Virus record (IMG/VR): IMGVR_UViG_2695420685_000005
DNA: 34,095 nucleotides
Reading direction: 5' to 3' (one strand)
DNA from: a virus
Taxonomy: Duplodnaviria; Heunggongvirae; Uroviricota; Caudoviricetes
The position numbers and the translations under genes are program-made. Under the pieces are notes generated by a model. That model worked only from the letters and a program-made list of their open reading frames with translations. It did no database searches and had not been told where the DNA came from. Every line of letters starts with the position of its first letter. Positions within the stretch are counted from its first letter, which is position 1. Of the stretch, positions 143 through 32,010 are shown piece by piece.

Positions 143-169
143 AAAAAATAAGCCCGTGTAAGGGAGATT
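143..169. repeat. attL: attL core: 27-bp direct repeat aaaaaataagcccgtgtaagggagatt
   Basis: Identical 27-mer recurs at 31924-31950, where it forms the 3' terminator end of cyaR; integrase gene lies immediately inside. Confidence 0.8.
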
Positions 170-248
170 TAGGGTGTCACCAGTAGGGGCTTTCAACGGT
201 ACAATGCGGGTTTGAGCGGCATAAATTACCACTGAAAGCCCTTAAACG

Positions 249-1262
249 TTACTCTACTGTGGACACTGTGTGGACACTCTCGGCTTCAGTACCACCTCTT
301 AGCGGATTAAGAGAAATGGCGTCCTGAAGGTACTCTGGCGCAAAATGAGCGTAAACCATAGTTTGCTCAATCCGCGTGTGACCTAGTATCCGTTGTAGCG
401 TGATAATACTTCCTCCATTAATCATGAAATGAGTGGCAAAGCTGTGCCTTAGTGCATGTGTGGCTTGCCCCGTTGGCAAATCCGGTTTTATTGCTTTCAT
501 TGTTCGTCTGAAGCGAGGGTAATCAGCATCAGGGAATAAAAAACCTCGTTTGTTATCCGCGATCATTTTGGCAACAGCCTCTGAGATCGGGACGGTGCGT
601 GGTTTGTTTGTTTTCGTTTTAACAAACGTGACGCGGTTATGGATGATATTTTCTGCTTTCAAACGAGCTGCTTCTCCCCAACGTGCTCCTGTACTCAGGC
701 AAAGAATCGCAATCTTTTTGTTGTCGCCGTCAAGTGCTGCAAGCAGTAAGGCAATTTCTTCCTGTGTGAGATAGCCTGTTTCTGGTTTTTCCTCCTTAAG
801 CCTCTTTGTCCCTCTGATAGGGTGCTCACCAAAGAATAACTCCGCTTCAATCAGGGCTGTAAACATGCCGCTAATACATGTTAAATCACGATTGATACTC
901 GAAGGTTTAATACCCTGACTTCTTCGGGTGGCGCAGTACTGGCTGATAAGGGATTTCGTGATTTGAAATGCGCATGGGTCATTCGTTATTTTTGTGAAGA
1001 TTTCAATTTTTCCAAGATTAGATTTCCCATGCTCTTCGTGTTTACCCTTTAAATCCCACCAGATCTGTGTCAGTTCCGACAGACGTCGTTTGTCTGTTGG
1101 TTTTGATAGCCATTCTTTATTGTGGTGGTTGTACAACGTGTATTTTTCGAAAGCGACAGCTTCGCTTTTCTTATCAAACTTCCTACGGATGCGTTTTCCG
1201 TTACGTCCAGTAGGGCGGATGTCCACTTCATATCGACCATCATCGAGTTTTTTGATTGCCAT
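249..1262 (-). CDS. int: Tyrosine site-specific integrase, P2 Int type (337 aa)
   Basis: Translation carries tyrosine-recombinase C-terminal signatures (HALRHSFATH ... LGH ... Y); size and position next to att match P2 Int. Confidence 0.92.
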   Translation of the reverse strand: MAIKKLDDGRYEVDIRPTGRNGKRIRRKFDKKSEAVAFEKYTLYNHHNKEWLSKPTDKRRLSELTQIWWDLKGKHEEHGKSNLGKIEIFTKITNDPCAFQITKSLISQYCATRRSQGIKPSSINRDLTCISGMFTALIEAELFFGEHPIRGTKRLKEEKPETGYLTQEEIALLLAALDGDNKKIAILCLSTGARWGEAARLKAENIIHNRVTFVKTKTNKPRTVPISEAVAKMIADNKRGFLFPDADYPRFRRTMKAIKPDLPTGQATHALRHSFATHFMINGGSIITLQRILGHTRIEQTMVYAHFAPEYLQDAISLNPLRGGTEAESVHTVSTVE

Positions 1263-1377
1263 CAGAAAACCCTCCGAGTGGTACTTTTTTTTGCTACTAC
1301 TAATCGCTTTTTTCGTGGTGGCTGAAATTTAGCCACCAATAGTAGGCACTTGTGATGAATATATTCACGATAAATTG

Positions 1378-1677
1378 TTAACCAGTCTTTTGACCGGAGT
1401 GGGGCGACGTTGTTTCGTTTTGCCCAAAGTGTGCGAGAGCGGGCGCAATTTGCCCGGCTTCTGGAGCTACCTGATCAGTCATGAACCACAAAGTATATTT
1501 AGTAAATCTGGGATGTTGTAAGACCTTCATTATGGCTTCAACTCCAGCGTTTTTTGACCGGCTCTCATAGCTCGAAAGTGAGCTGTAGGCTACACCAGTT
1601 AATTCACTGAATTCTTTACGGTTTAACCTTTCAGATTCACGGATTAGCTTCAACTTCTCCGAAACGTCTATTGACAT
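1378..1677 (-). CDS. C: Immunity repressor C (99 aa from internal ATG; ORF track extends to a TTG at 1749)
   Basis: C-terminal part (FTKYTLWFMT..QIAPALAHFGQNETTSPHSGQKTG) matches my recollection of the P2 C repressor; divergent from cox; upstream of int on the same strand as in P2. Confidence 0.8.
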   Translation of the reverse strand: MSIDVSEKLKLIRESERLNRKEFSELTGVAYSSLSSYESRSKNAGVEAIMKVLQHPRFTKYTLWFMTDQVAPEAGQIAPALAHFGQNETTSPHSGQKTG

Positions 1678-1798
1678 AATTACTCCGATTGCGTAATTTC
1701 TTGCTGATAGTGTGAAATGTTGTGCTTCTGGAGTTATCCTTTTAGGCAATAATTAGCCATTAGGAGCCATTAGAAGCACTAAGGGAGAATCGTAGCAG
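1678..1798. promoter_or_regulatory. C/cox divergent early control region (Pc/Pe) with direct-repeat operator half-sites AGCCATTAG x2 at about 1755-1763 and 1765-1773
   Basis: Intergenic between divergent C and cox; two identical 9-mers spaced 10 bp apart (one helical turn), consistent with direct-repeat operators of P2-type C repressors. Confidence 0.5.
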
Positions 1799-2074
1799 AT
1801 GAATAGACAGCTTGTAAGCGTGACTGATGCCGTGCCTTATCAGGAGTTTGCAAAACTCATTGGTAAAACTCCAAGAGCTGTAAGGGGCATGATTGAGAAA
1901 GGGAAATTACCAGTTATTGAGATTACTGACCCTCAGTCAGTATCGGGGCGTGCTGGTGAATATTGGGTATACCTTCCGGCATGGAATAACGGACTAAAAC
2001 TGGCTTATGAAAGCCGTCCTAAAGAGATTCGTGACGGCTGGTTGATGTGGTTAGGTCTCGGTGAACCACGTTAA
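1799..2074 (+). CDS. cox: Cox: excisionase / repressor of Pc (91 aa)
   Basis: Translation (PYQEFAKLIGK...GRAGEYWVYLPAWNNGLKLAYESRPKEIRDGWLMWLGL) matches P2 Cox; first gene of the rightward early operon. Confidence 0.88.
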   Translation: MNRQLVSVTDAVPYQEFAKLIGKTPRAVRGMIEKGKLPVIEITDPQSVSGRAGEYWVYLPAWNNGLKLAYESRPKEIRDGWLMWLGLGEPR

Positions 2075-2084
2075 GGAGAACCGT

Positions 2085-2255
2085 ATGAATGAGCCTCGTT
2101 GTATTGCTCAGTTATTGCGTAACGAAAGCCCCAGGGCGATTGACTTCACCATCACCCACGGTAAGGGGCGTAAGGGAATCATTATCCGCACCAAAAAACA
2201 GAGTCCGTTAAAAAAGACTCTGACCTTTCTGAAAAGCCGGAGGGTCTGGAAATGA
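2085..2255 (+). CDS. Small early-operon protein, hypothetical (P2 orf78 position)
   Basis: ORF in track (2061-2255); ATG at about 2085 follows an aaggag ribosome-binding site; syntenic with P2 orf78. Confidence 0.4.
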   Translation: MNEPRCIAQLLRNESPRAIDFTITHGKGRKGIIIRTKKQSPLKKTLTFLKSRRVWK

Positions 2256-2752
2256 CAGTGATGACGCTCAATCTCGTTGAAAAACAGCCAGCAGCTATGC
2301 GCCGGATAATTGGTAAGCATCTGGCCGTCCCTCGCTGGCAGGAGACATGCGATTATTATAATCAGATGATGGAACGCGAACGGCTAACGGTTTGCTTCCA
2401 TGCGCAGTTAAAACAGCGTCACGCAACGATGCGTTTTGAAGAAATGAACGACGTCGAACGTGAACGGCTGGTTTGTGCAATTGATGAACTGCGTGGGGCA
2501 TTCTCAAAACGCCGTCAGGTCGGTGCAAGTGAGTATGCATATATTAGCTTTTTAACTGTCAGTCAGCGCCGTACTTTATTTATGCATGCCGGATTGACTG
2601 AAAAAGAATTCAACCAGCCATACTGGCGAATTAATGAAGAATCATGTTACTGGCGTGATGCCTTATTCCGTGCATTACGTGAATTATTCAGCCTGTTTGA
2701 GTATGCACCGACAATTCTGACGTCGGTAAAACCAGAGCAATATCTGCATTAA
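2252..2752 (+). CDS. B: Replication protein B (166 aa), helicase-loader-like
   Basis: Size and position match P2 gene B; overlaps the upstream stop (translational coupling). Confidence 0.75.
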   Translation: MTVMTLNLVEKQPAAMRRIIGKHLAVPRWQETCDYYNQMMERERLTVCFHAQLKQRHATMRFEEMNDVERERLVCAIDELRGAFSKRRQVGASEYAYISFLTVSQRRTLFMHAGLTEKEFNQPYWRINEESCYWRDALFRALRELFSLFEYAPTILTSVKPEQYLH

Positions 2753-2815
2753 GTAATTAACCAGAGTTTTTAACGCACTTAATTGTGCGGGGCTTCTTTT
2801 TGCCTGGAGAAAGTC

Positions 2816-3040
2816 ATGCATACAGTTTCTGAAAATCAGTGCGGTAAATACGCATTACTGCTGCAACAGGCCAGAACCGAAGCACAGGCCGACGCAGCGA
2901 CGCGCTTTTCTTCTCATCTTGACGCCATGATTCGCCACATCACAAAGGCGGAGTTATCCCGCGTGGAGATAGTCGAGCTGCTCAGTCAGGAGTCGGAAAA
3001 ATTTCACAATATCGGATTGTCTCGCGGGGAGGTGCTTTGA
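2816..3040 (+). CDS. Hypothetical early protein (P2 orf80 position)
   Basis: ORF 2783-3040 in track; ATG at about 2816 preceded by ggagaaag. Confidence 0.45.
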
Positions 3041-3342
3041 TGTCCTGTTCTCGTTCAGTTGTATTACTGAATAACGCCTTAAAAATCACCGTTATGAAAA
3101 ATGGCGATTTATCTCTTATTCAACTTGGTCTTGATAAAGAAAAACGCGAAATAACTGAGTCTGTTATCGCGATTTATCAGAACGAATTAAATCTCCTGTC
3201 TGATGTGGTCAATTTACTTGTTAAACGCGCTGTATTTCACAAGCAAATCTCCTCCGTGGATGAACTGACGAAATTAACGACAGAAATTGCTAGCTATTGC
3301 GCTGATGAATTTAAAAAACTTAACGACAAAAGGAGCTGGTAA
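3037..3342 (+). CDS. Hypothetical early protein (101 aa)
   Basis: ORF in track; start overlaps the upstream stop; AT-leaning codon usage. Confidence 0.45.
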
Positions 3343-3566
3343 TGCCGGACAACGTAGATTTTATTCAGGAACAACAGGCTGAATTACTGGAGCGTCAGAT
3401 TAACGCGGCAAGGGTAAAACATTGCGGTGCTTCTGCGCTGGTTTGCGAAGAGTGTGACGCGCCAATACCTGCTGCCCGTCGTGCGGCTTATCCGTCAGCC
3501 ACGCGTTGTGTTTCCTGCCAGTCAGTCTTTGAAGCAAAAAACAAACATTACCGGAGAACGGCATGA
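3342..3566 (+). CDS. TraR/DksA-like C4 zinc-finger protein (74 aa)
   Basis: Two CxxC pairs (CEEC ... CVSC) in a 74-aa protein; a similar small zinc-finger ORF occupies this position in P2. Confidence 0.6.
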   Translation: MPDNVDFIQEQQAELLERQINAARVKHCGASALVCEECDAPIPAARRAAYPSATRCVSCQSVFEAKNKHYRRTA

Positions 3567-3838
3567 GTATTCGTATTGAAATTGGCGAACGTTATGTCGT
3601 TACCAGTGACAGCTTTCAGTTTATTCTCCACGAGAAAAAGAGAGCGGAAAGCGGTAAAAACGCCGGTCAGGAATGGCTGGCGGTGGTTGGTTATTATCCG
3701 AAATTAAGCCAGCTTGTTTCCGGCCTGATGCATCACGATATTCTGACCGGAAGCGCAAAGTCTTTTGCTGATTTAAACGCGCAGGTTGAGCAACTCAGCA
3801 AGCGTTGTTCAGAGGCTTTTGGCTCATATGGCCGTTAA
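3563..3838 (+). CDS. Hypothetical early protein (91 aa)
   Basis: ORF in track, coupled to the upstream gene; its 3' end overlaps the start of A. Confidence 0.45.
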   Translation: MSIRIEIGERYVVTSDSFQFILHEKKRAESGKNAGQEWLAVVGYYPKLSQLVSGLMHHDILTGSAKSFADLNAQVEQLSKRCSEAFGSYGR

Positions 3839-6113
3839 AGCCTCCGGGCGTTTTGTCCCTCCGTCAGCATTTGCCGCAGGCACCGGTGAGACGTTTACCG
3901 GTGCTTATGCATGGAACGCGCCACGCGAGGCCGTCGGGCGCGAAAGACCCCTTACACGTGACGAGATGCGTCAGGTGCAAGGTGTTTTATCCACGATTAA
4001 TCGCCTGCCTTACTTTTTGCGCTCGCTGTTTACTTCACGCTATGACTACATCCGGCGCAATAAAAGCCCGGTGCACGGATTTTATTTCCTCACATCCACT
4101 TTTCAGCGCCGTTTATGGCCGCGTATTGAGCGCGTGAATCAGCGCCATGAAATGAACACCGACGCGTCGTTGCTGTTTCTGGCAGAGCGTGACCATTATG
4201 CGCGTCTGCCGGGGATGAATGACAAGGAGCTGAAAAAGTTTGCCGCCCGTATCTCATCGCAGCTTTTCATGATGTATGAGGAACTCTGCGATGCATGGGT
4301 TGATGCACATGGCGAGAAAGAATCGCTGTTTACAGATGAGGCGCAGGCGCATCTGTATGGTCATGTTGCTGGCGCTGCACGTGCTTTCAATATTTCCCCT
4401 CTCTACTGGAAAAAATACCGTAAAGGACAGATGACCACGAGGCAGGCATATTCTGCCATTGCCCGTCTGTTTAACGATGAGTGGTGGACTCATCAGCTTA
4501 AAGGCCAGCGTATGCGCTGGCATGAGGCGTTACTGATTGCTGTCGGGGAGGTCAATAAAGACCGTTCTCCTTATGCCAGTAAACATGCCATTCGTGATGT
4601 GCGTGCACGCCGCCAGGCAAATCTGGAATTTCTTAAATCGTGTGACCTCGAAAACAGGGAAACCGGCGAGCGCATCGACCTTATCAGTAAGGTGATGGGC
4701 AGTATTTCTAATCCTGAAATTCGCCGGATGGAGCTGATGAACACCATCGCCGGTATTGAGCGTTACGCCGCCGCAGAGGGTGATGTGGGGATGTTTATCA
4801 CTCTGACCGCGCCGTCAAAGTATCACCCGACACGTCAGGTCGGAAAAGGCGAAAGTAAAACCGTCCAGCTAAATCACGGCTGGAATGATGAGGCATTTAA
4901 TCCAAAGGATGCGCAGCGTTATCTCTGCCGCATCTGGAGCCTGATGCGCACGGCATTCAAGGATAATGATTTACAGGTCTACGGTTTGCGAGTCGTCGAG
5001 CCACACCACGACGGAACGCCGCACTGGCATATGATGCTTTTTTGTAATCCACGCCAGCGTAACCAGATTATCGAAATCATGCGTCGCTATGCGCTCAAAG
5101 AGGATGGTGACGAAAGAGGAGCCGCGCGAAACCGTTTTCAGGCAAAACACCTTAACCGGGGCGGTGCTGCGGGATATATCGCGAAATACATCTCAAAAAA
5201 CATCGATGGCTATGCACTGGATGGTCAGCTCGATAACGATACCGGCAGGCCGCTGAAAGACACTGCCGCGGCTGTTACCGCATGGGCGTCAACGTGGCGC
5301 ATTCCGCAATTTAAAACGGTTGGCCTGCCGACAATGGGGGCTTACCGTGAACTACGCAAATTGCCTCGCGGCGTCAGCATTGCTGATGAGTTTGACGAAC
5401 GCGTCGAGGCTGCACGAGCTGCCGCAGACAGTGGTGATTTTGCGTTGTATATCAGCGCGCAGGGTGGGGCAAATGTTCCGCGCGATTGTCAGACTGTCAG
5501 GGTTGCCCGTAGTCCGTCGGATGAAGTTAACGAGTACGAGGAAGAAGTCGAGAGAGTGGTCGGCATTTACGCGCCGCATCTCGGCGCGCGTCATATTCAT
5601 ATCACCAGAACGACGGACTGGCGCATTGTTCCGAAAGTACCGGTCGTTGAGCCTTTGACTTTAAAAAGCGGCATCGCCGCGCCTCGGAGTCCTGTCAATA
5701 ACTGTGGAAAGCTCACCGGCGGTAATACTTCGTTGCCGGTTCCCACGCCTTCTGAGCACGCCGCAGCAGTGCTTAATCTGGTTGATGACGGTGTTATCGA
5801 ATGGAATGACCCGGAGGTCGTGAGGACGCTCAGGGGTGCATTAAAACACGGACTGAGAAGACCAAACCGTCAGCAAAGAAACGGAAGCCCGTTAAAACCA
5901 CATGAAATTGCACCATCGGCCAGACTGACCCGGTCAGAAAGAATGCAAATTACCCGTATCCGCGTTGACCTTGCTCAGAACGGTATCAGGCCGCAGCGAT
6001 GGGACCTTGAGGCGCTGGCGCGTGGCGCGACCGTAAATTATGACGGGAAAAAGTTCACATATCCGGTCGCTGATGAGTGGCCGGGATTCTCAACAGTAAT
6101 GGAGTGGACATGA
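3828..6113 (+). CDS. A: Replication initiation protein A, HUH rolling-circle endonuclease (761 aa from ATG at 3828; ORF track opens at 3786)
   Basis: HUH motif (PHWHMMLF) and paired active-site tyrosines (GYIAKYISK); N-terminus MAVKASGRFVPP matches P2 gpA. Confidence 0.92.
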   Translation: MAVKASGRFVPPSAFAAGTGETFTGAYAWNAPREAVGRERPLTRDEMRQVQGVLSTINRLPYFLRSLFTSRYDYIRRNKSPVHGFYFLTSTFQRRLWPRIERVNQRHEMNTDASLLFLAERDHYARLPGMNDKELKKFAARISSQLFMMYEELCDAWVDAHGEKESLFTDEAQAHLYGHVAGAARAFNISPLYWKKYRKGQMTTRQAYSAIARLFNDEWWTHQLKGQRMRWHEALLIAVGEVNKDRSPYASKHAIRDVRARRQANLEFLKSCDLENRETGERIDLISKVMGSISNPEIRRMELMNTIAGIERYAAAEGDVGMFITLTAPSKYHPTRQVGKGESKTVQLNHGWNDEAFNPKDAQRYLCRIWSLMRTAFKDNDLQVYGLRVVEPHHDGTPHWHMMLFCNPRQRNQIIEIMRRYALKEDGDERGAARNRFQAKHLNRGGAAGYIAKYISKNIDGYALDGQLDNDTGRPLKDTAAAVTAWASTWRIPQFKTVGLPTMGAYRELRKLPRGVSIADEFDERVEAARAAADSGDFALYISAQGGANVPRDCQTVRVARSPSDEVNEYEEEVERVVGIYAPHLGARHIHITRTTDWRIVPKVPVVEPLTLKSGIAAPRSPVNNCGKLTGGNTSLPVPTPSEHAAAVLNLVDDGVIEWNDPEVVRTLRGALKHGLRRPNRQQRNGSPLKPHEIAPSARLTRSERMQITRIRVDLAQNGIRPQRWDLEALARGATVNYDGKKFTYPVADEWPGFSTVMEWT

Positions 6114-6307
6114 TGGCAAAAATTCACGAGGTAAAGCTGCACGCAAAATATTTCGACCTTGTGCTGGAAGGAAAGAAACGCGCAGAGTTTCGGAAAAATG
6201 ACCGTAATTATGAGCGCGGGGACACGTTGATTTTGCATGAATGGGTGCAGGGTGTGTACACGGGGCGAAAGGTTGAAGCCCGGATAACAGATGTTACTGA
6301 CCTGTAA
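6110..6307 (+). CDS. Small ASCH/DUF3850-like (PUA-fold) protein
   Basis: Translation (KIHEVKLHAKYFDLVLEGKKRAEFRKNDRNYERGDTLILHEW) fits the DUF3850/ASCH pattern as I remember it; ATG overlaps the A stop codon. Confidence 0.5.
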   Translation: MMAKIHEVKLHAKYFDLVLEGKKRAEFRKNDRNYERGDTLILHEWVQGVYTGRKVEARITDVTDL

Positions 6308-6328
6308 GACTGGCTGGTAGATTATGTC

Positions 6329-6565
6329 TTGCTAAGTATTGAGCTGCTTAATACAGGCGCATATGAGATTGTGAACTGGAAAGAACTTAGTGAGCGTGGT
6401 CTGGTATTCAGAATTAATCATGAAATTATGCATCAGCTCGGCCTTGCTGTTATGTATGAACCAGAGACGGGGATGTCTGGCGGGGCAATGGTTGCCACGG
6501 ATGGAGCATGGAACTATTCAGATGAACAGGTGGAGCGTGCAAAGCAAAATGGGTGGCTTGGATAA
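6329..6565 (+). CDS. Hypothetical protein (78 aa)
   Basis: ORF in track, same strand and operon context downstream of A; no recognisable motif. Confidence 0.4.
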   Translation: MLSIELLNTGAYEIVNWKELSERGLVFRINHEIMHQLGLAVMYEPETGMSGGAMVATDGAWNYSDEQVERAKQNGWLG

Positions 6566-6771
6566 TGCACAGAATACCAGGCGAGATACCGCACCATAAA
6601 ACTAAAAATATCAAGCTGATGGCCATTGTTCACCGTCTACAGCAGATTATGGTCAACGAAAATCTGACGCCCGATGAGCTAGTCGGGTGTGCCGAAATAG
6701 TCCGGGATAATTACGGGCGGTTTAACTATATCGGTCAGTCCAGAGTTGCGCCACCACCACGCAGACGATAG
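6553..6771 (+). CDS. Hypothetical protein (72 aa)
   Basis: ORF in track overlapping the upstream stop; no recognisable motif. Confidence 0.35.
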   Translation: MAWIMHRIPGEIPHHKTKNIKLMAIVHRLQQIMVNENLTPDELVGCAEIVRDNYGRFNYIGQSRVAPPPRRR

Positions 6772-6928
6772 AGAACGCCGCCAGTCGTGAAACTTGTTTT
6801 CAGGGTTGGCGGGGTGAACAACTCATCTGCGGAGGCGTTAGCATACTAGGTGATAATCTTGAGCATTGAACCTTTTGCATAGATCCCTTATTGTTCTGGG
6901 GATTTTTTACCGCTTCGTAGGGAAAGTG

Positions 6929-8056
6929 ATGGAAACTGGAATCGTTACGTTCTTTGATATCAAGGCTTGTGGTTTTTACAGACTGAAGAAAAACGCAGAA
7001 GAATTAGAGCATAAATTCGGAACACTTGATGAGATCTTTGACGCGTTGCAGGCTTGGCTTGATGACAAAAGCGTTGAGGAGTCAATTCCGTGGGATACGG
7101 GAACTCATCCGCTAAGAGCCAGAACTTACTCACGAGGAGTGGCTGTCGATCCCGATACAAAAGATCGGGTGATGGTAATGTATCGCGCATTAGGTTCCGC
7201 GAAGGGACGTTTGCACGCTGTTAAAAAAAACGCACCTGTTGGTGCTACAGAAAATGATACAGTAAAGACAGAAACGAATGGAAAAGACTATATTTGGGTT
7301 GAGCCATGTTATTATTGGGTAATTCCTGAATATAACAAGATTGCATCCATTATATTTCCTCATTCAGGTGCAGATACACCGAGGTTAAGCAATTATATTT
7401 TTAATTTTGTAGTAAATCACGGTGATTTTGGTAGGGAAAAGGATACTACCTCATTTACTAGAGCTCGTTCTTCATGTTCGGAAGATGACATTCTTATTTC
7501 TAAAACAATTTTCAAGCATGTAGATGAAAATGGACGCAAGTGTAATTGCGTTTTTAAATTTAAGGCTGAAGTGACGAAGGTTAATAAACCAGGGACGAAT
7601 ATTCTTGATGTACGAGATAAAATTGTTCAGACAATTATTCGTGATACTACGGTCGCAAAAGTTGAGGATACCCGGCAACCGTTATTACGTCTGGTGAGTA
7701 ATGTACTATCGGATTTCTTGGGAACAGAACAAACCAAGTTTACAAAACCTAAAAAAATTGAGGTTCGAGTAGATGGTGCTCCTTCGGAAGAGGAGATAAA
7801 ACAACTATTGGATAGAAATGTAGATGATGTTGACTGGGTTGATGTTGGCTTTGTTCTTAAAGATTCATCTCGCCCATTATGGTTAAAAAAATATATGGCG
7901 AGAACTGCATTAATTGTCAGCGATTCTACCGGGGATGAGCATTTCTCTCCAGAAAAACTCCTTCATGAAATAAAGGCTGTCCGTGATGATTTACTCCAAA
8001 CAATCCTTTATAATGAAGAGGTGGAAGAAAAATCTTTAAAAACGGCGGAGGCATAA
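6929..8056 (+). CDS. AT-rich cargo gene 1: soluble protein of unknown function (375 aa from ATG at 6929; 396 aa if the upstream TTG at 6866 is used), candidate defence component
   Basis: Long ORF with sharply lower GC than the flanking phage genes; no transmembrane segments or classical P-loop seen; stop overlaps the start of the next gene (taaATG); sits at the P2 tin/old hotspot. Confidence 0.6.
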   Translation: METGIVTFFDIKACGFYRLKKNAEELEHKFGTLDEIFDALQAWLDDKSVEESIPWDTGTHPLRARTYSRGVAVDPDTKDRVMVMYRALGSAKGRLHAVKKNAPVGATENDTVKTETNGKDYIWVEPCYYWVIPEYNKIASIIFPHSGADTPRLSNYIFNFVVNHGDFGREKDTTSFTRARSSCSEDDILISKTIFKHVDENGRKCNCVFKFKAEVTKVNKPGTNILDVRDKIVQTIIRDTTVAKVEDTRQPLLRLVSNVLSDFLGTEQTKFTKPKKIEVRVDGAPSEEEIKQLLDRNVDDVDWVDVGFVLKDSSRPLWLKKYMARTALIVSDSTGDEHFSPEKLLHEIKAVRDDLLQTILYNEEVEEKSLKTAEA

Positions 8057-8596
8057 ATGTCACCTCAAACAAGTAAGGATTTAAAGGCATTGATAATACA
8101 ATGGAAATGGAATTTGTTAATTCTATTTCTAATTGCTGTGGCCTCCTATTGGCTGAAAGCTTATGTTAACTATAGTGATATAAAAGATATACTGGGTGTT
8201 TTGCAAAACATATCTGCTGCAATTTTTACCATAGTTGGATTATGGATTGGTTTTTTATATCCGAATGCAATTGCAAGCATTGTCAATGATGATGTTGATT
8301 ACATAAAGAATACGAAAGATGCACCTCGAATTGAAAAGCTAATTTACGTTGTAATTACTTCAGCAGTAGTAATGCTTTCGATTTTGTTTGTTTATCTGTT
8401 TAAATCAATAGGCTCTGTGCTATCGAGTTCAGTGGTGTATTCTGATCTTATTAGAATGATTGGAATCACCTTTGTTTATTTTATGTGCTGGTTACAAATA
8501 AAGTGTGTGTTTAGTGTTATTTTAAGCAACTTATCATTTGCAAACAATCTTCACTCAAGAATAGTAAATGCTAGGTTCTCTCATCATGATGATTGA
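8057..8596 (+). CDS. AT-rich cargo gene 2: small integral membrane protein with about 4 TM helices (179 aa), candidate effector
   Basis: Four hydrophobic stretches (about residues 18-33, 52-72, 95-115, 134-157); translationally coupled to cargo gene 1; same low-GC island. Confidence 0.6.
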   Translation: MSPQTSKDLKALIIQWKWNLLILFLIAVASYWLKAYVNYSDIKDILGVLQNISAAIFTIVGLWIGFLYPNAIASIVNDDVDYIKNTKDAPRIEKLIYVVITSAVVMLSILFVYLFKSIGSVLSSSVVYSDLIRMIGITFVYFMCWLQIKCVFSVILSNLSFANNLHSRIVNARFSHHDD

Positions 8597-8609
8597 TTCC
8601 ATCACTAAA

Positions 8610-8638
8610 ATCATGCGTCAAGTTAATGCATGATTTTG
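8610..8638 (+). terminator. Putative intrinsic terminator after the cargo operon (stem atcatgc/gcatgat then TTTT)
   Basis: 7-bp inverted repeat with an 11-nt loop followed by a short T-run, 14 bp after the gene-2 stop. Confidence 0.4.
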
Positions 8639-8737
8639 CATGCACTAGGTTTCCTTGTTATAGCTGAGAGTAAGCAGACCTGGTGGAAACCTAGAGTGGT
8701 CATGCAACTGCATTAAAACCGACCCATGAAGCGGGCG

Positions 8738-13892: not shown

Positions 13893-13895
13893 CCG

Positions 13896-19152: not shown

Positions 19153-19156
19153 AACC

Positions 19157-20588: not shown

Positions 20589-20598
20589 GTGAGGAATA

Positions 20599-22728: not shown

Positions 22729-22731
22729 TTT

Positions 22732-23259: not shown

Positions 23260-23624
23260 GTTGTATGAGCTTACATATCTATAGCACAGAGTAAAGTCTA
23301 CTCTGACAGTCTGCTCTGTGCTAGGAGCAGATGTAGTTAATATCATAGTATCTGTTGAACAAATTAGAGCGAGCAAGGGAGAATTGTGTATAATTTTGTT
23401 TGAGTATTTCTATACATGTGTTATAGATATTTAAAAGTTGATGCGTTAATTTTATTCGGAGGTCTAATGTCTGTAGGTGCGTATGAAAATGATTATTTAG
23501 ATGAGTTGAGATAGTTTGTGCAGAAAAAAGAAAATAGTATTTTTATGCACTCCAAGAAAGAATTAAATATTATAACATTTTTCATCCAACTTCCATTGAG
23601 AAGATAAAATAAAGAGGTTTTTGA

Positions 23625-24953: not shown

Positions 24954-25094
24954 CTATATAAATATTTAAAAAACAAACCATGGTTTACTAATCGTGTGAC
25001 CATGTCCGCTCCTCGCTCAAAGCAGACTGTCAGATTTGATAACTTTTGGGCTATGTAAATTGTCAGTCGGAAAATGAGTGAGTACAAATCAAGG

Positions 25095-25219: not shown

Positions 25220-26410
25220 ATGAGTGACTATCATCACGGCGTGCAGGTGCTGGAAATTAACGACGGCACCCGCGTCATTTCCACCGTATCCACGGCCATT
25301 GTCGGCATGGTCTGCACGGCCAGCGATGCAGATGCGGAAACCTTCCCCCTCAATAAACCTGTGCTGATTACCAATGTGCAGAGTGCAATTGCAAAGGCTG
25401 GTAAAAAAGGCACGCTGGCGGTATCGTTGCAGGCCATCGCTGACCAGTCAAAACCGGTCACCGTTGTTGTGCGTGTGGAAGACGGCACCGGCGACGACGA
25501 GGAAACGAAACTCGCGCAGACCGTTTCCAATATCATCGGCACCACCGACGAAAACGGTCAGTACACCGGACTGAAAGCCCTGCTGGCGGCGGAGTCGGTA
25601 ACCGGTGTTAAACCACGAATTCTCGGCGTACCGGGACTGGACACCAAAGAGGTGGCTGTTGCACTGGCATCAGTCTGTCAGAAGCTGCGTGCTTTCGGGT
25701 ATATCAGCGCATGGGGATGTAAGACCATTTCCGAGGTGAAAGCCTACCGCCAGAATTTCAGCCAGCGTGAGCTGATGGTCATCTGGCCGGATTTCCTCGC
25801 ATGGGATACGGTCACCAGTACCAACGCCACCGCGTATGCCACCGCCCGTGCGCTGGGTCTGCGCGCTAAAATCGACCAGGAGCAGGGCTGGCATAAAACG
25901 CTGTCCAACGTCGGGGTAAACGGTGTTACCGGCATCAGCGCATCTGTATTCTGGGATTTGCAGGAGTCCGGCACCGATGCTGACCTGCTTAACGAGTCAG
26001 GCGTCACTACGCTGATTCGCCGCGACGGTTTCCGATTCTGGGGTAACCGTACCTGCTCTGATGACCCGCTGTTCCTCTTTGAAAACTACACCCGCACCGC
26101 GCAGGTGCTGGCCGACACGATGGCTGAGGCGCACATGTGGGCGGTGGACAAGCCCATCACCGCAACGCTGATTCGCGACATCGTTGACGGCATCAATGCC
26201 AAATTCCGTGAGCTGAAAACAAACGGCTATATCGTGGATGCGACCTGCTGGTTCAGCGAAGAATCCAACGATGCGGAAACCCTCAAGGCCGGAAAACTGT
26301 ATATCGACTACGACTATACACCGGTGCCTCCTCTTGAAAACCTGACCCTGCGCCAGCGTATTACCGATAAATACCTGGCAAATCTGGTCACCTCGGTTAA
26401 CAGCAATTAA
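25220..26410 (+). CDS. FI: Tail sheath protein FI (396 aa)
   Basis: Size and synteny with P2 FI. Confidence 0.9.
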   Translation: MSDYHHGVQVLEINDGTRVISTVSTAIVGMVCTASDADAETFPLNKPVLITNVQSAIAKAGKKGTLAVSLQAIADQSKPVTVVVRVEDGTGDDEETKLAQTVSNIIGTTDENGQYTGLKALLAAESVTGVKPRILGVPGLDTKEVAVALASVCQKLRAFGYISAWGCKTISEVKAYRQNFSQRELMVIWPDFLAWDTVTSTNATAYATARALGLRAKIDQEQGWHKTLSNVGVNGVTGISASVFWDLQESGTDADLLNESGVTTLIRRDGFRFWGNRTCSDDPLFLFENYTRTAQVLADTMAEAHMWAVDKPITATLIRDIVDGINAKFRELKTNGYIVDATCWFSEESNDAETLKAGKLYIDYDYTPVPPLENLTLRQRITDKYLANLVTSVNSN

Positions 26411-26422
26411 GGAGCCTGACCG

Positions 26423-26941
26423 ATGGCAATGCCGCGCAAACTCAAGTTAATGAACGTCTTTCTGAACGGCTACAGCTATCAGGGCGTCGCGAAGTCCGTC
26501 ACGCTGCCAAAACTGACCCGTAAGCTCGAAAACTATCGCGGTGCTGGTATGAACGGCAGCGCACCGGTAGACCTCGGCCTTGATGACGATGCGCTGTCAA
26601 TGGAGTGGTCGCTCGGTGGCTTCCCGGATTCGGTTATCTGGGAGCTTTACGCCGCAACCGGTGTGGATGCCGTACCGATTCGTTTTGCAGGCTCTTACCA
26701 GCGCGACGATACCGGCGAAACGGTGGCCGTCGAGGTGGTCATGCGTGGACGTCAGAAAGAAATCGACACCGGCGAGGGTAAACAGGGAGAAGACACCGAG
26801 TCGAAAATCTCCGTGGTCTGCACCTATTTCCGGCTGACGATGGACGGTAAGGAGCTGGTCGAAATCGACACCATCAACATGATTGAGAAGGTGAACGGCG
26901 TCGACCGGCTGGAGCAACACCGCCGAAATATCGGCCTGTGA
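26423..26941 (+). CDS. FII: Tail tube protein FII (172 aa)
   Basis: Size and synteny with P2 FII. Confidence 0.9.
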   Translation: MAMPRKLKLMNVFLNGYSYQGVAKSVTLPKLTRKLENYRGAGMNGSAPVDLGLDDDALSMEWSLGGFPDSVIWELYAATGVDAVPIRFAGSYQRDDTGETVAVEVVMRGRQKEIDTGEGKQGEDTESKISVVCTYFRLTMDGKELVEIDTINMIEKVNGVDRLEQHRRNIGL

Positions 26942-26997
26942 TTTTCATCCGGTCAGCCTGGCTGACCGGTTAACCCTGATTCAGAAGTGAGAAAACC

Positions 26998-27273
26998 ATG
27001 AACAAAGAAAATGTCATTACCCTGGACAATCCGGTCAAGCGTGGTGAGCAGGTTATCGAACAGGTCACGCTGATGAAACCTAATGCCGGGACGCTGCGCG
27101 GTGTCAGTCTGGCAGCGGTCGCGAACTCCGAAGTCGATGCACTGATTAAGGTGCTGCCGCGCATGACGGCACCGATGCTGACCGAGCAGGAAGTCGCCGC
27201 GCTGGAACTGCCTGATCTTGTGGCGCTGGCCGGTAAGGTGGTCGGTTTTTTGTCGCCGAACTCGGTGCAGTGA
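26998..27273 (+). CDS. E: Tail assembly chaperone E (91 aa)
   Basis: Size and position before the tape-measure gene; carries the slippery site near its 3' end. Confidence 0.85.
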   Translation: MNKENVITLDNPVKRGEQVIEQVTLMKPNAGTLRGVSLAAVANSEVDALIKVLPRMTAPMLTEQEVAALELPDLVALAGKVVGFLSPNSVQ

Positions 27274-27425
27274 CGTTTCCGAAAAATCTCTCGGTCGATG
27301 ACCTGATGGCGGATGTGGCAGTGATATTTCACTGGCCGCCATCAGAACTGTATCCCATGAGCCTGACCGAACTCATCACATGGCGCGAAAAGGCGCTCCG
27401 GCGAAGCGGAAACACGAATGAGTAA
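26998..27425 (+). CDS. E': E+E' fusion made by a programmed -1 frameshift at T_TTT_TTG (27246-27252); the -1 frame continues for 57 codons to a TAA at 27423-27425
   Basis: Slippery heptamer in the right phase near the end of E; the -1 frame stays open across the apparently non-coding gap up to the T start codon; same architecture as P2 E/E' and lambda G/GT. Confidence 0.75.
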
Positions 27426-29865
27426 CAATGTAAAATTACAGGTATTGCTCAGGGCTGTTGACCAGGCATCCCGCCCGTTTAAATCCATCCGCACAGCGAG
27501 TAAGTCGCTGTCGGGGGATATCCGGGAAACACAAAAATCACTGCGCGAGCTGAACGGTCAGGCATCCCGTATTGAGGGATTTCGCAAGACCAGTGCACAG
27601 CTCGCCGTGACTGGTCATGCACTTGAAAAGGCACGGCAGGAGGCCGAAGCCCTTGCCACACAGTTTAAAAACACCGAACGTCCGACACGTGCTCAGGCGA
27701 AAGTGCTGGAATCAGCAAAGCGAGCGGCGGAGGACTTACAGGCGAAATATAACCGCCTGACGGATTCCGTTAAACGCCAGCAGCGGGAACTGGCCGCTGT
27801 GGGAATTAATACCCGCAATCTTGCACATGATGAGCAGGGGCTGAAAAACCGTATCAGTGAAACCACCGCACAGCTTAACCGTCAGCGCGACGCACTGGCG
27901 CGTGTCAGTGCACAACAGGCAAAACTTAACGCAGTAAAACAGCGTTATCAGGCCGGAAAAGAACTGGCAGGAAATATGGCCTCAGTGAGCGCTGCCGGTG
28001 TGGGGATTGCTGCTGCGGGAACGATGGCCGGTGTTAAGCTGCTGATGCCCGGTTATGAGTTTGCGCAGAAAAACTCAGAATTGCAGGCTGTGCTCGGTGT
28101 GGCAAAAGACTCCGCCGAAATGGCCGCATTACGCAAACAGGCGCGCCAGCTCGGCGACAATACCGCCGCCTCGGCAGATGATGCAGCCGGTGCGCAGATT
28201 ATTATTGCGAAAGCCGGTGGGGATGTTGATGCCATTCAGGCGGCAACGCCGGTCACGCTGAACATGGCGCTGGCGAACCGCCGCACGATGGAAGAAAACG
28301 CCGCCCTGCTGATGGGGATGAAATCCGCCTTTCAGCTTTCAAACGATAAGGTCGCTCATATCGGGGATGTTCTCTCCATGACGATGAACAAAACCGCCGC
28401 CGATTTTGACGGCATGAGCGATGCGCTGACCTATGCCGCACCTGTGGCAAAAAATGCCGGTGTCAGCATTGAAGAAACCGCCGCAATGGTCGGGGCGCTG
28501 CATGATGCAAAAATTACAGGCTCAATGGCGGGGACGGGAAGCCGTGCCGTGTTAAGCCGCCTGCAGGCACCGACGGGAAAAGCATGGGATGCACTCAAAG
28601 AGCTTGGAGTGAAAACCTCAGACAGCAAGGGAAACACCCGGCCAATATTTACCATTCTGAAAGAAATGCAGGCCAGTTTTGAGAAAAACCGGCTCGGTAC
28701 TGCCCAGCAGGCTGAATACATGAAAACTATTTTCGGGGAGGAGGCCAGCTCAGCCGCCGCCGTGCTGATGACTGCCGCCTCAACCGGAAAGCTGGACAAA
28801 CTGACCGCTGCGTTTAAAGCCTCAGACGGCAAGACCGCCGAGCTGGTAAATATCATGCAGGACAACCTAGGCGGTGACTTTAAAGAGTTTCAGTCCGCTT
28901 ATGAGGCGGTGGGGACTGACCTGTTTGACCAGCAGGAAGGCGCGCTGCGTAAGCTCACGCAGACGGCCACAAAGTATGTGTTAAAACTCGACGGCTGGAT
29001 CCAGAAAAACAAATCACTGGCGTCAACCATCGGCATCATTGCCGGTGGCGCGCTGGCGCTGACTGGCATCATCGGTGCAATTGGTCTTGTAGCCTGGCCG
29101 GTTATCACCGGCATCAATGCCATCATCGCGGCAGCAGGCGCAATGGGGGCAGTCTTCACGACGGTTGGCAGTGCCGTTATGACCGCCATCGGGGCGATTA
29201 GCTGGCCGGTTGTGGCCGTGGTGGCCGCTATTGTCGCCGGGGCGTTACTTATCCGTAAATACTGGGAGCCTGTCAGCGCATTCTTTGGCGGTGTGGTTGA
29301 AGGGCTGAAAGCGGCATTTGCGCCGGTGGGGGAGCTGTTCACGCCACTTAAGCCGCTGTTTGACTGGCTGGGTGAAAAGTTACAGGCCGCGTGGCAGTGG
29401 TTTAAAAACCTGATTGCCCCGGTCAAAGCCACCCAGGACACCCTGAACCGTTGCCGTGACACGGGCGTCATGTTCGGGCAGGCACTGGCTGACGCGCTGA
29501 TGCTGCCGCTTAATGCGTTCAACAAACTGCGCAGCGGTATTGACTGGGTACTGGAAAAACTCGGTGTTATCAACAAAGAGTCAGACACACTTGACCAGAC
29601 CGCCGCAAGGACTCATGCCGCCACGTATGGCACAGGTGATTATATTCCGGCGACCAGCTCTTATGCGGGGTATCAGGCTTACCAGCCGGTCACGGCACCG
29701 GCTGGCCGCTCTTATGTGGACCAGAGTAAAAACGAATATCACATCAACCTGACGGGCGGTACTGCGCAGGGGACACAGCTTGACCGCCAGTTACAGGATG
29801 CGCTCGAAAAATACGAGCGGGATAAACGTGCGCGCGCCCGTGCCAGCATGATGCATGACGGTTAA
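27418..29865 (+). CDS. T: Tail tape-measure protein T (815 aa)
   Basis: Long Ala/Gly-rich protein with hydrophobic central segments; size and synteny with P2 T. Confidence 0.9.
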   Translation: MSNNVKLQVLLRAVDQASRPFKSIRTASKSLSGDIRETQKSLRELNGQASRIEGFRKTSAQLAVTGHALEKARQEAEALATQFKNTERPTRAQAKVLESAKRAAEDLQAKYNRLTDSVKRQQRELAAVGINTRNLAHDEQGLKNRISETTAQLNRQRDALARVSAQQAKLNAVKQRYQAGKELAGNMASVSAAGVGIAAAGTMAGVKLLMPGYEFAQKNSELQAVLGVAKDSAEMAALRKQARQLGDNTAASADDAAGAQIIIAKAGGDVDAIQAATPVTLNMALANRRTMEENAALLMGMKSAFQLSNDKVAHIGDVLSMTMNKTAADFDGMSDALTYAAPVAKNAGVSIEETAAMVGALHDAKITGSMAGTGSRAVLSRLQAPTGKAWDALKELGVKTSDSKGNTRPIFTILKEMQASFEKNRLGTAQQAEYMKTIFGEEASSAAAVLMTAASTGKLDKLTAAFKASDGKTAELVNIMQDNLGGDFKEFQSAYEAVGTDLFDQQEGALRKLTQTATKYVLKLDGWIQKNKSLASTIGIIAGGALALTGIIGAIGLVAWPVITGINAIIAAAGAMGAVFTTVGSAVMTAIGAISWPVVAVVAAIVAGALLIRKYWEPVSAFFGGVVEGLKAAFAPVGELFTPLKPLFDWLGEKLQAAWQWFKNLIAPVKATQDTLNRCRDTGVMFGQALADALMLPLNAFNKLRSGIDWVLEKLGVINKESDTLDQTAARTHAATYGTGDYIPATSSYAGYQAYQPVTAPAGRSYVDQSKNEYHINLTGGTAQGTQLDRQLQDALEKYERDKRARARASMMHDG

Positions 29866-29879
29866 GGAGGTGACGAAAA

Positions 29880-30359
29880 ATGATGCTCGCGTTAGGTATG
29901 TTTGTTTTTATGCGCCAGACGCTGCCACACCAGACCATGCAGCGTGAATCGGATTATCGCTGGCCGTCAAATTCCCGTATCGGTAAACGGGATGCCTTTC
30001 AGTTTCTCGGTGTAGGTGAGGAAAACATCACGCTGGCCGGTGTGCTTTATCCCGAACTGACCGGCGGAAAGCTGACGATGACCACGCTCAGACTGATGGC
30101 AGAGGAAGGCCGGGCGTGGCCGTTGCTGGATGGCACCGGCATGATTTACGGCATGTATGTCATCAGCAGGGTGAGTGAAACAGGGAGTATTTTCTTTGCA
30201 GACGGCACACCCCGAAAAATTGATTTTACGCTGTCGCTCACCCGCGTTGATGAATCACTGGCCGCGCTTTATGGCGATATCGGTAAACAGGCAGAATCGC
30301 TCATCGGTAAGGCTGGCAGTATGGCGACTAAATTCACGGATATGACGGGGGCGGGATAA
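29880..30359 (+). CDS. U: Tail protein U (159 aa)
   Basis: Size and synteny with P2 U. Confidence 0.85.
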   Translation: MMLALGMFVFMRQTLPHQTMQRESDYRWPSNSRIGKRDAFQFLGVGEENITLAGVLYPELTGGKLTMTTLRLMAEEGRAWPLLDGTGMIYGMYVISRVSETGSIFFADGTPRKIDFTLSLTRVDESLAALYGDIGKQAESLIGKAGSMATKFTDMTGAG

Positions 30360-31522
30360 TGCTGGATGCACTGACATTTGATGCAGGCAGTACGCTGACG
30401 CCGGATTACATGCTGATGCTCGACAGCAGGGATATTACCGGCAATATCAGCGACCGTCTGATGAGCATGACCCTGACGGATAACCGGGGCTTTGAGGCTG
30501 ACCAGCTTGATATTGAACTGAACGATGCCGACGGGCAGGTCGGGCTGCCGGTTCGTGGCGCTGTCCTGACGGTGTATATCGGCTGGAAAGGTTTTGCCCT
30601 GGTATGCAAAGGGAAATTTACCGTTGATGAGGTTGAACACCGGGGCGCGCCGGATGTGGTTACCATCCGCGCCCGGAGTGCAGATTTTCGCGGGACGCTC
30701 AATTCCCGCCGGGAAGGCTCATGGCATGACACCACGCTCGGTGCGATTGTTGAGGCGATAGCCTCCCGTAACAGGCTGGAAGCCAGTGTCACTCCGTCAC
30801 TGGCCGGAATTAAAATCCCGCACATCGACCAGTCGCAGGAGTCTGATGCGAAATTCCTGACCCGTCTTGCTGAACGCAACGGCGGCGAGGTGTCGGTAAA
30901 AATGGGAAAACTGTTGTTTCTCAAAGCGGGGCAGGGGGTGACGGCCAGCGGTAAAAAAATCCCGCAGGTCACCATAACCCGCAGCGACGGCGACCGCCAT
31001 CATTTTGCGATTGCTGACCGTGGAGCCTATACCGGCGTAACGGCAAAGTGGTTACACACCAAAGATCCGAAACCACAAAAGCAGAAGGTAAAACTGAAAC
31101 GCAAAAAGAAAGAAAAACACCTGCGCGCACTGGAGCACCCGAAAGCAAAACCGGTCACGCAGAAGAAAGCGCCAAAAGTACCGGAAGCGCGCGAAGGTGA
31201 ATACATGGCCGGTGAGGCTGACAACGTTTTTGCCCTGACTACGGTATATGCCACGAAAGCGCAGGCCATGCGCGCCGCTCAGGCGAAGTGGGATAAACTG
31301 CAACGGGGGGTGGCGGAGTTCTCCATCAGCCTGGCTACCGGTCGGGCTGATATTTACACGGAAACGCCGGTCAGAGTGTCAGGCTTTAAGCGCGTCATAG
31401 ACGAGCAGGACTGGACAATCACTAAGGTGACACATTTTCTGAATAATAGCGGCTTCACGACGTCCTTAGAGCTTGAGGTCAGGCTTTCTGATGTGGAGTA
31501 CGAAACAGAAGATGATGAGTGA
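30359..31522 (+). CDS. D: Tail protein D (387 aa, late gene D)
   Basis: Size and synteny with P2 D; last gene of the tail operon. Confidence 0.9.
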   Translation: MLDALTFDAGSTLTPDYMLMLDSRDITGNISDRLMSMTLTDNRGFEADQLDIELNDADGQVGLPVRGAVLTVYIGWKGFALVCKGKFTVDEVEHRGAPDVVTIRARSADFRGTLNSRREGSWHDTTLGAIVEAIASRNRLEASVTPSLAGIKIPHIDQSQESDAKFLTRLAERNGGEVSVKMGKLLFLKAGQGVTASGKKIPQVTITRSDGDRHHFAIADRGAYTGVTAKWLHTKDPKPQKQKVKLKRKKKEKHLRALEHPKAKPVTQKKAPKVPEAREGEYMAGEADNVFALTTVYATKAQAMRAAQAKWDKLQRGVAEFSISLATGRADIYTETPVRVSGFKRVIDEQDWTITKVTHFLNNSGFTTSLELEVRLSDVEYETEDDE

Positions 31523-31606
31523 TGTTTTTATTTTATCTGTTTGTTTTATAAGGATAAATTAACTAAAATGGCACCATCAACAAAACCGGAAGAGGTGCTC
31601 GCGATG

Positions 31607-31822
31607 TTTCATTGTCCTTTATGCCAGCATGCCGCACATGCGCGTACAAGTCGCTATATCACTGACACGACAAAAGAGCGTTATCACCAGTGTCAGAACG
31701 TGAATTGCAGCGCCACGTTCATCACTTATGAGTCGGTACAGCGATACATCGTGAAGCCGGGAGAAGTCCACGCCGTAAGGCCGCACCCGTTGCCGTCAGG
31801 GCAGCAAATTATGTGGATGTAA
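31607..31822 (+). CDS. ogr: Ogr, zinc-finger late-gene transcription activator (from internal ATG at 31607; ORF track opens at 31541)
   Basis: MFHCPLCQHAAHARTSRYI...YHQCQNVNCSATF carries the Cys4 zinc-binding pattern of P2 Ogr; last phage gene before attR. Confidence 0.9.
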   Translation, partial: FHCPLCQHAAHARTSRYITDTTKERYHQCQNVNCSATFITYESVQRYIVKPGEVHAVRPHPLPSGQQIMWM

Positions 31823-31832
31823 TTACAAACAG

Positions 31833-31859
31833 AAAGCCCCTCAGTCGAGGGGCTTTTTT
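31833..31859 (+). terminator. Rho-independent terminator after ogr
   Basis: aaagcccctc-agtc-gaggggcttt stem-loop followed by a T-run. Confidence 0.7.
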
Positions 31860-31923
31860 GTCGATGTGGTCAATGTGTGGACGTGACCAGAAATAAATCC
31901 TTTTATTTCAATTTGTTGTACGT

Positions 31924-31950
31924 AAAAAATAAGCCCGTGTAAGGGAGATT
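31924..31950. repeat. attR: attR core: second copy of the 27-bp direct repeat
   Basis: Identical to 143-169; coincides with the 3' terminator of cyaR. Confidence 0.8.
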
Positions 31951-32010
31951 ACACAGGCTAAGGAGGTGGTTCCTGGTACAGCTAGCATTTTATGGGTTAT
32001 GTTTTTCAGC
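31924..32010 (-). ncRNA. cyaR: CyaR (RyeE) Hfq-dependent sRNA, about 87 nt
   Basis: Minus strand reads GCUGAAAAACAUAACCCAUAAAAUGCUAGCUGUACCAGGAACCACCUCCUUAGCCUGUGUAAUCUCCCUUACACGGGCUUAUUUUUU, matching the E. coli CyaR sequence as I recall it, with a 3' stem-loop and U-run. Confidence 0.85.

Follow-up and report, generated by a model that had tools for sequence, protein, structure and literature searches.

Phages that integrate in the 3' end of an RNA gene include phage 186, found in tRNA-Ile, and Fels-2 and SopEPhi, found in ssrA (PMC3448106), and the Salmonella sdsR locus (ryeB in PMC3603311) is also a prophage target (PMC3333887, PMC3603311). The small RNA gene cyaR has been listed as 'cyaR RNA' among P2 prophage insertion sites, for Wphi2 in strain W, ogr-D' in K-12 and P2*B in strain B (PMC3032704), and under its other name, ryeE, it has been described as 'previously known to be targeted by phages' (PMC3603311). 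Integration of P2 at cyaR is already known and well documented, and the case described here is correct but ordinary. In the stretch of DNA analysed, 34,095 nucleotides long and referred to below as the window, a 31.8-kb P2-like prophage lies between the two copies of a 27-bp repeat (Table 1). We consider it close to certain that this is a P2-like temperate phage (Peduovirus) that was integrated by its own tyrosine integrase at the standard P2 site, the terminator of cyaR, and nothing in the window sequence contradicts this reading.

The sequence anatomy of the two junctions is directly observed. The repeat, AAAAAATAAGCCCGTGTAAGGGAGATT, is exact, occurs in only two copies in the window and matches the annotated phage P2 attP core base for base, which bears out the proposal of the first-pass annotation that a prophage sits in the 3' end of cyaR with the terminator rebuilt from a phage-borne core. 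The layout is B-O-P' at attL and P-O-B' at attR. With both core copies included the prophage extends from 143 to 31950, and the excised genome is predicted to be 31,781 bp long. When attL and attR are recombined in silico, the products are a P2-type P-O-P', with one mismatch in each arm, and a real B-O-B'. Window positions 143-300 differ from P2 24356-24513 (158 nt) only at position 285, just outside the P' arm part. On the host side, 90 bases of the B' flank containing cyaR are identical to K-12. All of positions 1-142 had been taken as the left flank, of which 100-142 is indeed the native B arm, while 1-99 is IS3: the K-12 alignment diverges left of position 100, so this part is not native flank, the transposase coding sequence ends at about 69, and the element terminus, ...GGATCA, is at 99. 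The IS3 insertion point is between yegR and the att site.

Table 1. Features of the prophage, its attachment sites and the flanking host DNA, in window coordinates
Feature	Position	Strand	Evidence or remark
IS3 right end	1..99	+	annotated IS3 transposase under match; multicopy in E. coli
Native bacterial B arm	100..142		identical to K-12 and empty-site strains
attL core (O)	143..169	+	27 bp, identical to P2 attP core
P' arm	170..283	+	collinear with P2 24383-24496, no indels
Cox-binding region (predicted), P' arm	186-259		position transferred from P2 annotation
Int arm-type sites (predicted), P' arm	257-283		position transferred from P2 annotation
int, tyrosine integrase	249..1262	-	99.7% identical to P2 Int
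Lysis-lysogeny switch	1381..2074	both	C repressor homologue and cox
C repressor homologue	1381-1677	-	64.6% identity to P2 C
cox	1799-2074	+	83.5% identity to P2
Early operon: orf78, B, orf80-83, A (3828-6113), cut orf91	2085..6334	+	95-100% aa identity
Variable hotspot replacing P2 tin/old	6334..8708	+	37% GC; small ORFs and two-gene cargo
Two-gene cargo	6866/6929-8056 and 8057-8596	+	
cos, 19-nt cohesive end	8738..8756	+	identical to P2
Late genes, overall span	8926..23259	both	
Late genes Q, P	within 8926..23259	-	
Late genes O N M L X Y K lysABC R S, V W J I H G	within 8926..23259	+	
Variable hotspot replacing P2 Z/fun	23322..25004	+	32% GC
Single 442-aa ORF of Z/fun hotspot	23625-24953	+	
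Tail operon FI FII E T U D and ogr (31604-31822)	25220..31822	+	98-100% aa identity
Terminator hairpin of ogr and F operon	31833..31856	+	
P arm	31861..31925	+	one mismatch vs P2 in 118 nt
Int arm-type sites (predicted), P arm	31861-31888		position transferred from P2 annotation
IHF site (predicted), P arm	31892-31925		position transferred from P2 annotation
attR core (O), also last 27 nt of cyaR	31924..31950	+	repeat and P2 core comparison
cyaR (ryeE) sRNA gene	31924..32010	-	Rfam, folding, terminator scan
CRP-like site TGTGA-N6-TCTAA	32045..32060		host B' DNA, untouched by prophage; read from sequence only
Host gene yegQ/trhP	32095-33456	-	
Host gene yegP	33603-33935	-	

The small RNA gene is complete at attR, as had been claimed. 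The alignment to the Rfam family CyaR_RyeE (RF00112), on the minus strand at 31927-32012, covers all of model positions 1-85 of 85 at 100.7 bits (gathering score 47), and the sequence is identical to those of the empty site and of K-12. Its terminator hairpin (31932-31959) has an 11-bp stem and a 6-nt loop followed by UUAUUUUUU, and its predicted fold (-18.9 kcal/mol, z = -4.57) is the same in the lysogen and in the empty site. The start of cyaR at 32010, which we take from the Rfam alignment and from the known K-12 transcript, places the CRP-like site about 42.5 nt upstream, measured from its centre. A generic sigma-70 scan found no promoter in this region, as expected because the promoter would be activator-dependent. 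The gene is under CRP control (PMC3333887).

The 27-bp core had been equated with the terminal stem-loop and U-tract of CyaR. This applies to the loop, the 3' arm and the U-tract, while of the 5' arm the core holds just 2 nt and the other 9 nt sit in the host B' DNA. Since the repeat holds only these parts, attL does not carry the 'terminator-only copy' that had been suggested; its fold (-9.7 kcal/mol, z = -0.38) is no better than that of shuffled sequences, and a terminator scan at attL called no terminator. The attL copy, lacking the 5' arm, is a predicted non-functional fragment. By analogy with established P2 biology, Int, together with IHF on the P arm, would have exchanged strands between attP and attB within their identical 27-bp cores, with the chemistry of recombination and the parts played by IHF and Cox as in P2. 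This would join the host-derived 5' arm to the phage-derived core segment at attR, giving an unchanged cyaR that its own promoter, in host DNA, still drives, and at attL the displaced part of the host core would be left next to int without its partner arm and without the sRNA body.

The empty site exists in real genomes. The flanks joined through one core copy match an actual allele at 288 of 288 positions in four genomes, which carry the same neighbouring IS3 as the window, so that the empty-site allele could be reconstructed as had been anticipated. Among 5,426 complete E. coli genomes 4,219 show the native empty junction, 812 that of attL and 1,222 that of attR; P2-type occupancy of the cyaR site is found in roughly one in six. 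The attR junction outnumbers the attL junction by about 400 genomes, which shows that decay is frequent here.

Prophage completeness is observed gene by gene. In a tblastn search with 42 P2 proteins, 37 align over their full length without stops, orf91 has a stop and aligns over only 75 of 109 aa, and no match was obtained for orf30, Z/fun, tin or old. The genes of the early operon are full length except for orf91, which is cut by a cargo insertion, and orf30 is annotated as nonessential in P2. At the nucleotide level P2 matches 78% of window positions 143-25000 (the first 24.9 kb) at 96.1% identity. The C-terminal part of gene H is divergent and carries five 132-bp repeats. The hairpin that ends ogr and the F operon, which also scores on the minus strand, is positioned between the phage late genes and cyaR. 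Judged from its sequence the prophage is apparently intact, with all conserved P2 genes at full length. Two P2 hotspots are occupied by low-GC cargo that is rare, and the two-gene cargo in the first of them (6866-8596) is PDC-M18-like. For the cargo proteins NCBIfam gave nothing and Pfam gave sub-threshold matches only.

Could the prophage be defective and immobile, a younger version of the K-12 remnant and not a functional phage? The interrupted orf91, the missing orf30 and the excess of attR over attL junctions, as a sign that decay at the site is common, all point in this direction. Against this, the essential P2 genes (Q P O N M L X Y K R S V W J I H G FI FII E T U D ogr int C cox B A) are all full length with no internal stop, cos is intact, as are the two arms and the two cores, and we regard a defective prophage as improbable. 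That the repeat arose by chance, or as a target duplication made by another mobile element, has practically no likelihood: no point speaks for it, a search that allowed up to three mismatches gave no match in 100 dinucleotide-preserving shuffles (the chance expectation is none), the repeat is identical to an experimentally annotated attP core with conserved arms, and matching sites, empty or occupied, number in the thousands. Besides a chance repeat and a transposon target duplication, we also considered and rejected a P4-like satellite.

A different question is whether integration measurably changes CyaR in its termination efficiency, Hfq-binding tail or read-through, as the sequence past the stem is now phage DNA. 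The run after the stem has seven U in the matching empty site and six at attR, the downstream sequence differs, and the K-12 terminator, which has the attR form, is reportedly leaky, with a read-through of 41% (PMC9765468). We nevertheless find such a change very improbable, more so than a defective prophage. The 27-nt core, and with it the entire hairpin and six U, does not change on integration, and neither does the predicted fold. The host side has six A in 49 of 102 attL junctions from IMG/VR, which places the difference between six and seven within natural host variation, and the well-studied, functional CyaR of K-12 is itself of the attR form. In the window, integration leaves the CyaR sequence unchanged except for the base after the U-run, and the suggestion of the first-pass annotation that CyaR expression depends on phage sequence finds no support there. 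We retain the reading of a P2-like phage integrated at the cyaR terminator.

In other lysogens the attR core is not the same as the host allele that remains at attL. Where the two copies differ within one IMG/VR contig, core positions 9 and 13 go with the B/P side and position 24 with the P'/B' side. We infer from this that strand exchange may take place between core positions 13-15 and 24, the interval that encodes the invariant terminator loop, although these three single-base differences could also be post-integration mutations; the literature searched gave no mapped P2 Int cleavage positions. In two Enterobacter-hosted prophages (L113 and L163) a phage core of the E. coli type creates a C.A mismatch in the CyaR terminator, with a predicted energy of -12.0 kcal/mol vs -17.4 kcal/mol for the native allele. 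Pattern scans of IMG/VR for their attL with the displaced host C at core position 15 gave either L318, an unrelated Enterobacter P2-like attL, or nothing, so the comparison behind this chimera is with species-representative genomes only. Three further candidates (L110, L118 and L146), which combine the core GCCTGCGT with an E. coli B' arm, were withdrawn as chimeras because Escherichia sp. E1V33 natively has this combination with no phage arm. We speculate, as an unlikely but slightly less improbable idea than a defective prophage, that P2-family phages impose their own allele of the CyaR-terminator 3' arm on the lysogen; if the mismatches alter termination or Hfq loading, a core regulatory sRNA would thereby undergo lysogenic conversion. 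Separately, and at the same low likelihood, the PDC-M18-like cargo may represent an anti-phage system not yet characterised.

Beyond correct annotation these results carry little weight, and the window is a clean, complete textbook example of P2 at its preferred site. For annotation, cyaR should be recorded as intact beside the prophage and the left 99 bases as IS3, and the 27-bp copy at attL should not be taken as a second terminator or as a functional fragment of the sRNA. The side results are perhaps more useful, namely the rare low-GC pair of cargo genes in the old/tin hotspot and the evidence that, in other hosts, a phage-borne core can alter individual bases of the CyaR terminator.

Compared with phage P2 (NC_001895), the prophage has the same 27-bp core, cos and gene order, a nearly identical Int, and P and P' arms that are each one base off. 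It differs in its low-GC cargo in place of tin/old and Z/fun, in the absence of orf30, and in the divergence of the C-terminal part of H, of all of G and of the C repressor. The cryptic remnant ogrK-D' (yegZ) that had been placed at the same site in K-12 was found there, as ogrK and a fragment of D. It shares with the window the locus, a full attR core and the orientation of ogr next to cyaR, while only ogr and the end of D are kept and its P arm is a different sequence variant. At the left junction of K-12 only nucleotides 1-20 of the core remain, and the deletion therefore ran from within attL into D. This K-12 scar is explained by P2 integration at the cyaR terminator. Wphi2 of E. coli W and P2*B of E. 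coli B, which are other members of the group, are P2-type prophages in the same sRNA gene (PMC3032704). The phages that integrate in tRNA genes, in the tmRNA gene or at sdsR use the same strategy, in which the phage carries the 3' end of the RNA gene and the gene survives integration, whereas the target in the window is the terminator of an Hfq-dependent sRNA and the duplicated part is only half of a hairpin.

The 27-mer AAAAAATAAGCCCGTGTAAGGGAGATT is present in two exact copies in the window, with no further copy there when up to three mismatches are permitted, and none of 100 dinucleotide-preserving shuffles had a 27-mer match. Because the Rfam model CyaR_RyeE matches here at full length and untruncated (100.7 bits against a gathering score of 47), the right copy is the 3' end of the sRNA gene cyaR, which confirms what the first-pass annotation had observed of the repeat and its sRNA identity. 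The same 27 bp are the annotated attP core of P2 (24356-24382). At the left end (attL) a bacterial arm is followed by the core and the P2 P' arm, and at the right end (attR) the P2 P arm is followed by the core and cyaR. Compared with the annotated Int arm, IHF and Cox sites of P2, the putative sites differ at a single base over 118 nt on the P side, and again at one base over 158 nt on the P' side. Joining the flanks through one core (window 1-142 plus 31924 onward) reconstructs the empty site expected from the first-pass annotation, and four complete E. coli genomes have this sequence with 288/288 identity. The gene order of strain 2013C-4991, which has an empty site, is yegR - IS3 - att - yegQ - yegP. 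Since the joined-flank match has IS3 between yegR and att, the first 99 nt of the window are an IS3 right end; the element is inserted between yegR and cyaR, 43 bp from the core, and only the next 43 nt are native left flank. The same IS3 lies next to a P2-like attL in six other genomes. With an empty att site, the query with this IS3 allele is covered in seven genomes, four of them at 100% identity.

The CyaR terminator has an 11-bp stem (AGCCUGUGUAA / UUACACGGGCU) and a 6-nt loop, followed by UAUUUUUU. The claim that the repeat equals the terminal stem-loop and U-tract stands for everything from the loop through the 3' arm to the U-tract, but of the 5' arm the core holds just the two final bases, the other nine being in host B' DNA. 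An intact cyaR is indeed kept at attR, where the Rfam match is full length and the terminator has the same fold as at the empty site (-18.9 kcal/mol). The proposed terminator-only copy beside int was not borne out: at attL, P2 P' sequence stands in place of the 5' arm, the fold (-9.7 kcal/mol, z = -0.38) is equalled or bettered by 62 of 200 shuffles, and a terminator scan found no terminator there. The sole change to cyaR on integration in this window is the base after the U-run, from 7 U + AUGC in the matching empty site to 6 U + ACGU at attR. This difference is within natural variation, because the host side already reads 6 A at 49 of 102 attL junctions from IMG/VR. The cyaR promoter region is in host DNA and includes, as read from the sequence, a CRP-like TGTGA-N6-TCTAA centred near -42.5, while the ogr/F-operon terminator hairpin lies between the phage late genes and the convergent cyaR.

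In P2, Int and IHF recombine attP with attB, and excision needs Cox. The sequence shows the attL/attR anatomy and intact arms, int, cox and cyaR, and attB exists. In a lysogen, CyaR would take its U-tract and the base of its 3' arm physically from phage DNA, with the crossover falling inside the core interval that encodes the terminator loop. Among IMG/VR stretches with an exact P2 P' arm (102) or P arm (94), the window's core is present in 93 of the attL cores and in 74 of the P-arm stretches (73 adjoining cyaR, one attP). Three IMG/VR prophages have both ends on one contig (stretches L007/L161, L095/L155 and L086/L176). In each, one core position (9, 13 or 24) distinguishes attL from attR, and the attR copy is the standard sequence in all three. 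Positions 9 and 13 behave as host-versus-phage (B-versus-P) differences and position 24 as P'-versus-B', which suggests strand exchange between 13 and 24, the interval encoding the loop, although these three single-base differences may also be later mutations. They are consistent with cyaR having received the phage allele.

Core positions 18-27 (AAGGGAGATT, plus strand; loop and flank) do not vary among representatives of 119 Enterobacteriaceae species, and the stem positions covary. Among the species representatives (L198-L317), a few have mismatched cyaR terminator stems (near -14 kcal/mol) that integrated elements might have left behind as chimeras. L113 and L163 are contigs of P2-type prophages in Enterobacter-like hosts; their host flanks share 97.9% identity with Enterobacter quasihormaechei. 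At their attR, next to cyaR, the 5' arm is that of Enterobacter and the core is of the E. coli type, with T at position 15. The terminator stem therefore has a C.A mismatch and folds at -12.0 kcal/mol, whereas the native Enterobacter allele reaches -17.4. Their attL junctions, sought to confirm the chimera, were not found in IMG/VR scans. In one IMG/VR stretch (L195) a P2-like attR at a non-cyaR site has the same first 23 core nucleotides and then diverges (…GGGACTAT), probably a secondary attachment site. In nine others (L112, L122, L126, L137, L140, L144, L148, L186, L188) the P-arm Int-site sequence is exactly that of P2 and a wholly different sequence (…AAAAAATGTCACCAATAACTGAC…) fills the place of the core. 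These phages have arm sites in common with P2 and a swapped core specificity.

Coordinates of features in the window
Feature	Position	Strand	Remark
IS3 right end	1-99
Native left flank	100-142
27-bp core, attL	143-169
attP core-int-C-cox-B-A	143-6333		piecewise map vs P2
C repressor homologue	1381-1677	minus
Cox	1799-2074	plus
Two-gene cargo	6334-8708		in place of P2 tin/old
Cargo ORFs	6866/6929-8056 and 8057-8596
cos-Q...S	8738-18108		piecewise map vs P2
V...H	18173-21326		piecewise map vs P2
Gene H	20599-22728
Phage_fiber_2 repeats	20985-21776
Inverted repeat	23297-23331 and 25005-25039		35 nt
Single-gene cargo	23322-25004		in place of P2 Z/fun
Cargo ORF	23625-24953	plus	442 aa
FI...D-ogr-attP core	25005-31950		piecewise map vs P2
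ogr/F-operon terminator hairpin	31833-31856
27-bp core, attR	31924-31950
Rfam CyaR_RyeE match	31927-32012	minus

By megablast, genomes of P2 and other Peduovirus phages cover 77-79% of window 143-25000, with an identity of about 96%. Mapped piecewise onto P2 (NC_001895), the prophage falls into the segments listed above. Of 42 P2 proteins, 37 align at full length without a stop codon; orf91 is cut, and orf30, Z/fun, tin and old, nonessential by the P2 annotation, are absent from the prophage. Int is 99.7% and Ogr 100% identical to those of P2, and the 19-nt cohesive end is the same base for base. The C homologue is only 64.6% and Cox 83.5% identical to their P2 counterparts, with the neighbouring int and B at 99%; the immunity may therefore differ from that of P2, and the region is probably mosaic and heteroimmune. 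The H/G region looks like a swapped host-range module: the C-terminal part of H, the tail-fibre gene, is unrelated to that of P2, and G is only 74% identical. H also has five tandem 132-bp (44-aa) Phage_fiber_2 repeats. The two-gene cargo (37% GC) lies where P2 phages are known to have a defence hotspot (PMC9122126). Its hits are PDC-M18 A (5.6e-38) and B (3.3e-16), a candidate system of PADLOC, and PHROGs of unknown function; the second of its proteins shows about four hydrophobic segments. None of 5,426 complete E. coli genomes matches 6845-8708 by megablast, and among 50,697 phage records the match to the cargo region is limited to its first ~510 nt. The single-gene cargo (32% GC), flanked by an inverted repeat, encodes a protein with sub-threshold HEPN_Swt1 and AHJR-like nuclease matches, named HEPN domain-containing protein in RefSeq; it is found in five of the 5,426 genomes and in none of the phage records.

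The cyaR site is in use across the family. With native flanks, the same 5,426 genomes have the B-O-B' (empty-site) junction in 4,219, B-O-P' (attL) in 812 and P-O-B' (attR) in 1,222, attR exceeding attL because remnants such as that of K-12 exist. A P2-like P arm lies directly beside cyaR in at least 14 of 120 species representatives, where the core usually matches the local allele. The remnant placed by the first-pass annotation at this locus in K-12 is there, with ogrK and a D fragment between yegR and yegQ; its core is complete at attR and the left junction keeps only the first 20 nt. In sequence its P arm is another variant than the window's, so the remnant records an integration event of its own, by a related phage. 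Archer et al. 2011 name 'cyaR RNA' among P2 prophage sites, with Wphi2 (strain W), ogr-D' (K-12) and P2*B (strain B) (PMC3032704), and Bobay et al. 2013, citing Wassarman 2001, describe ryeE in E. coli as 'previously known to be targeted by phages' (PMC3603311). The finding is therefore already known: the first-pass reading is correct and well located, and the arrangement is an ordinary and documented one.
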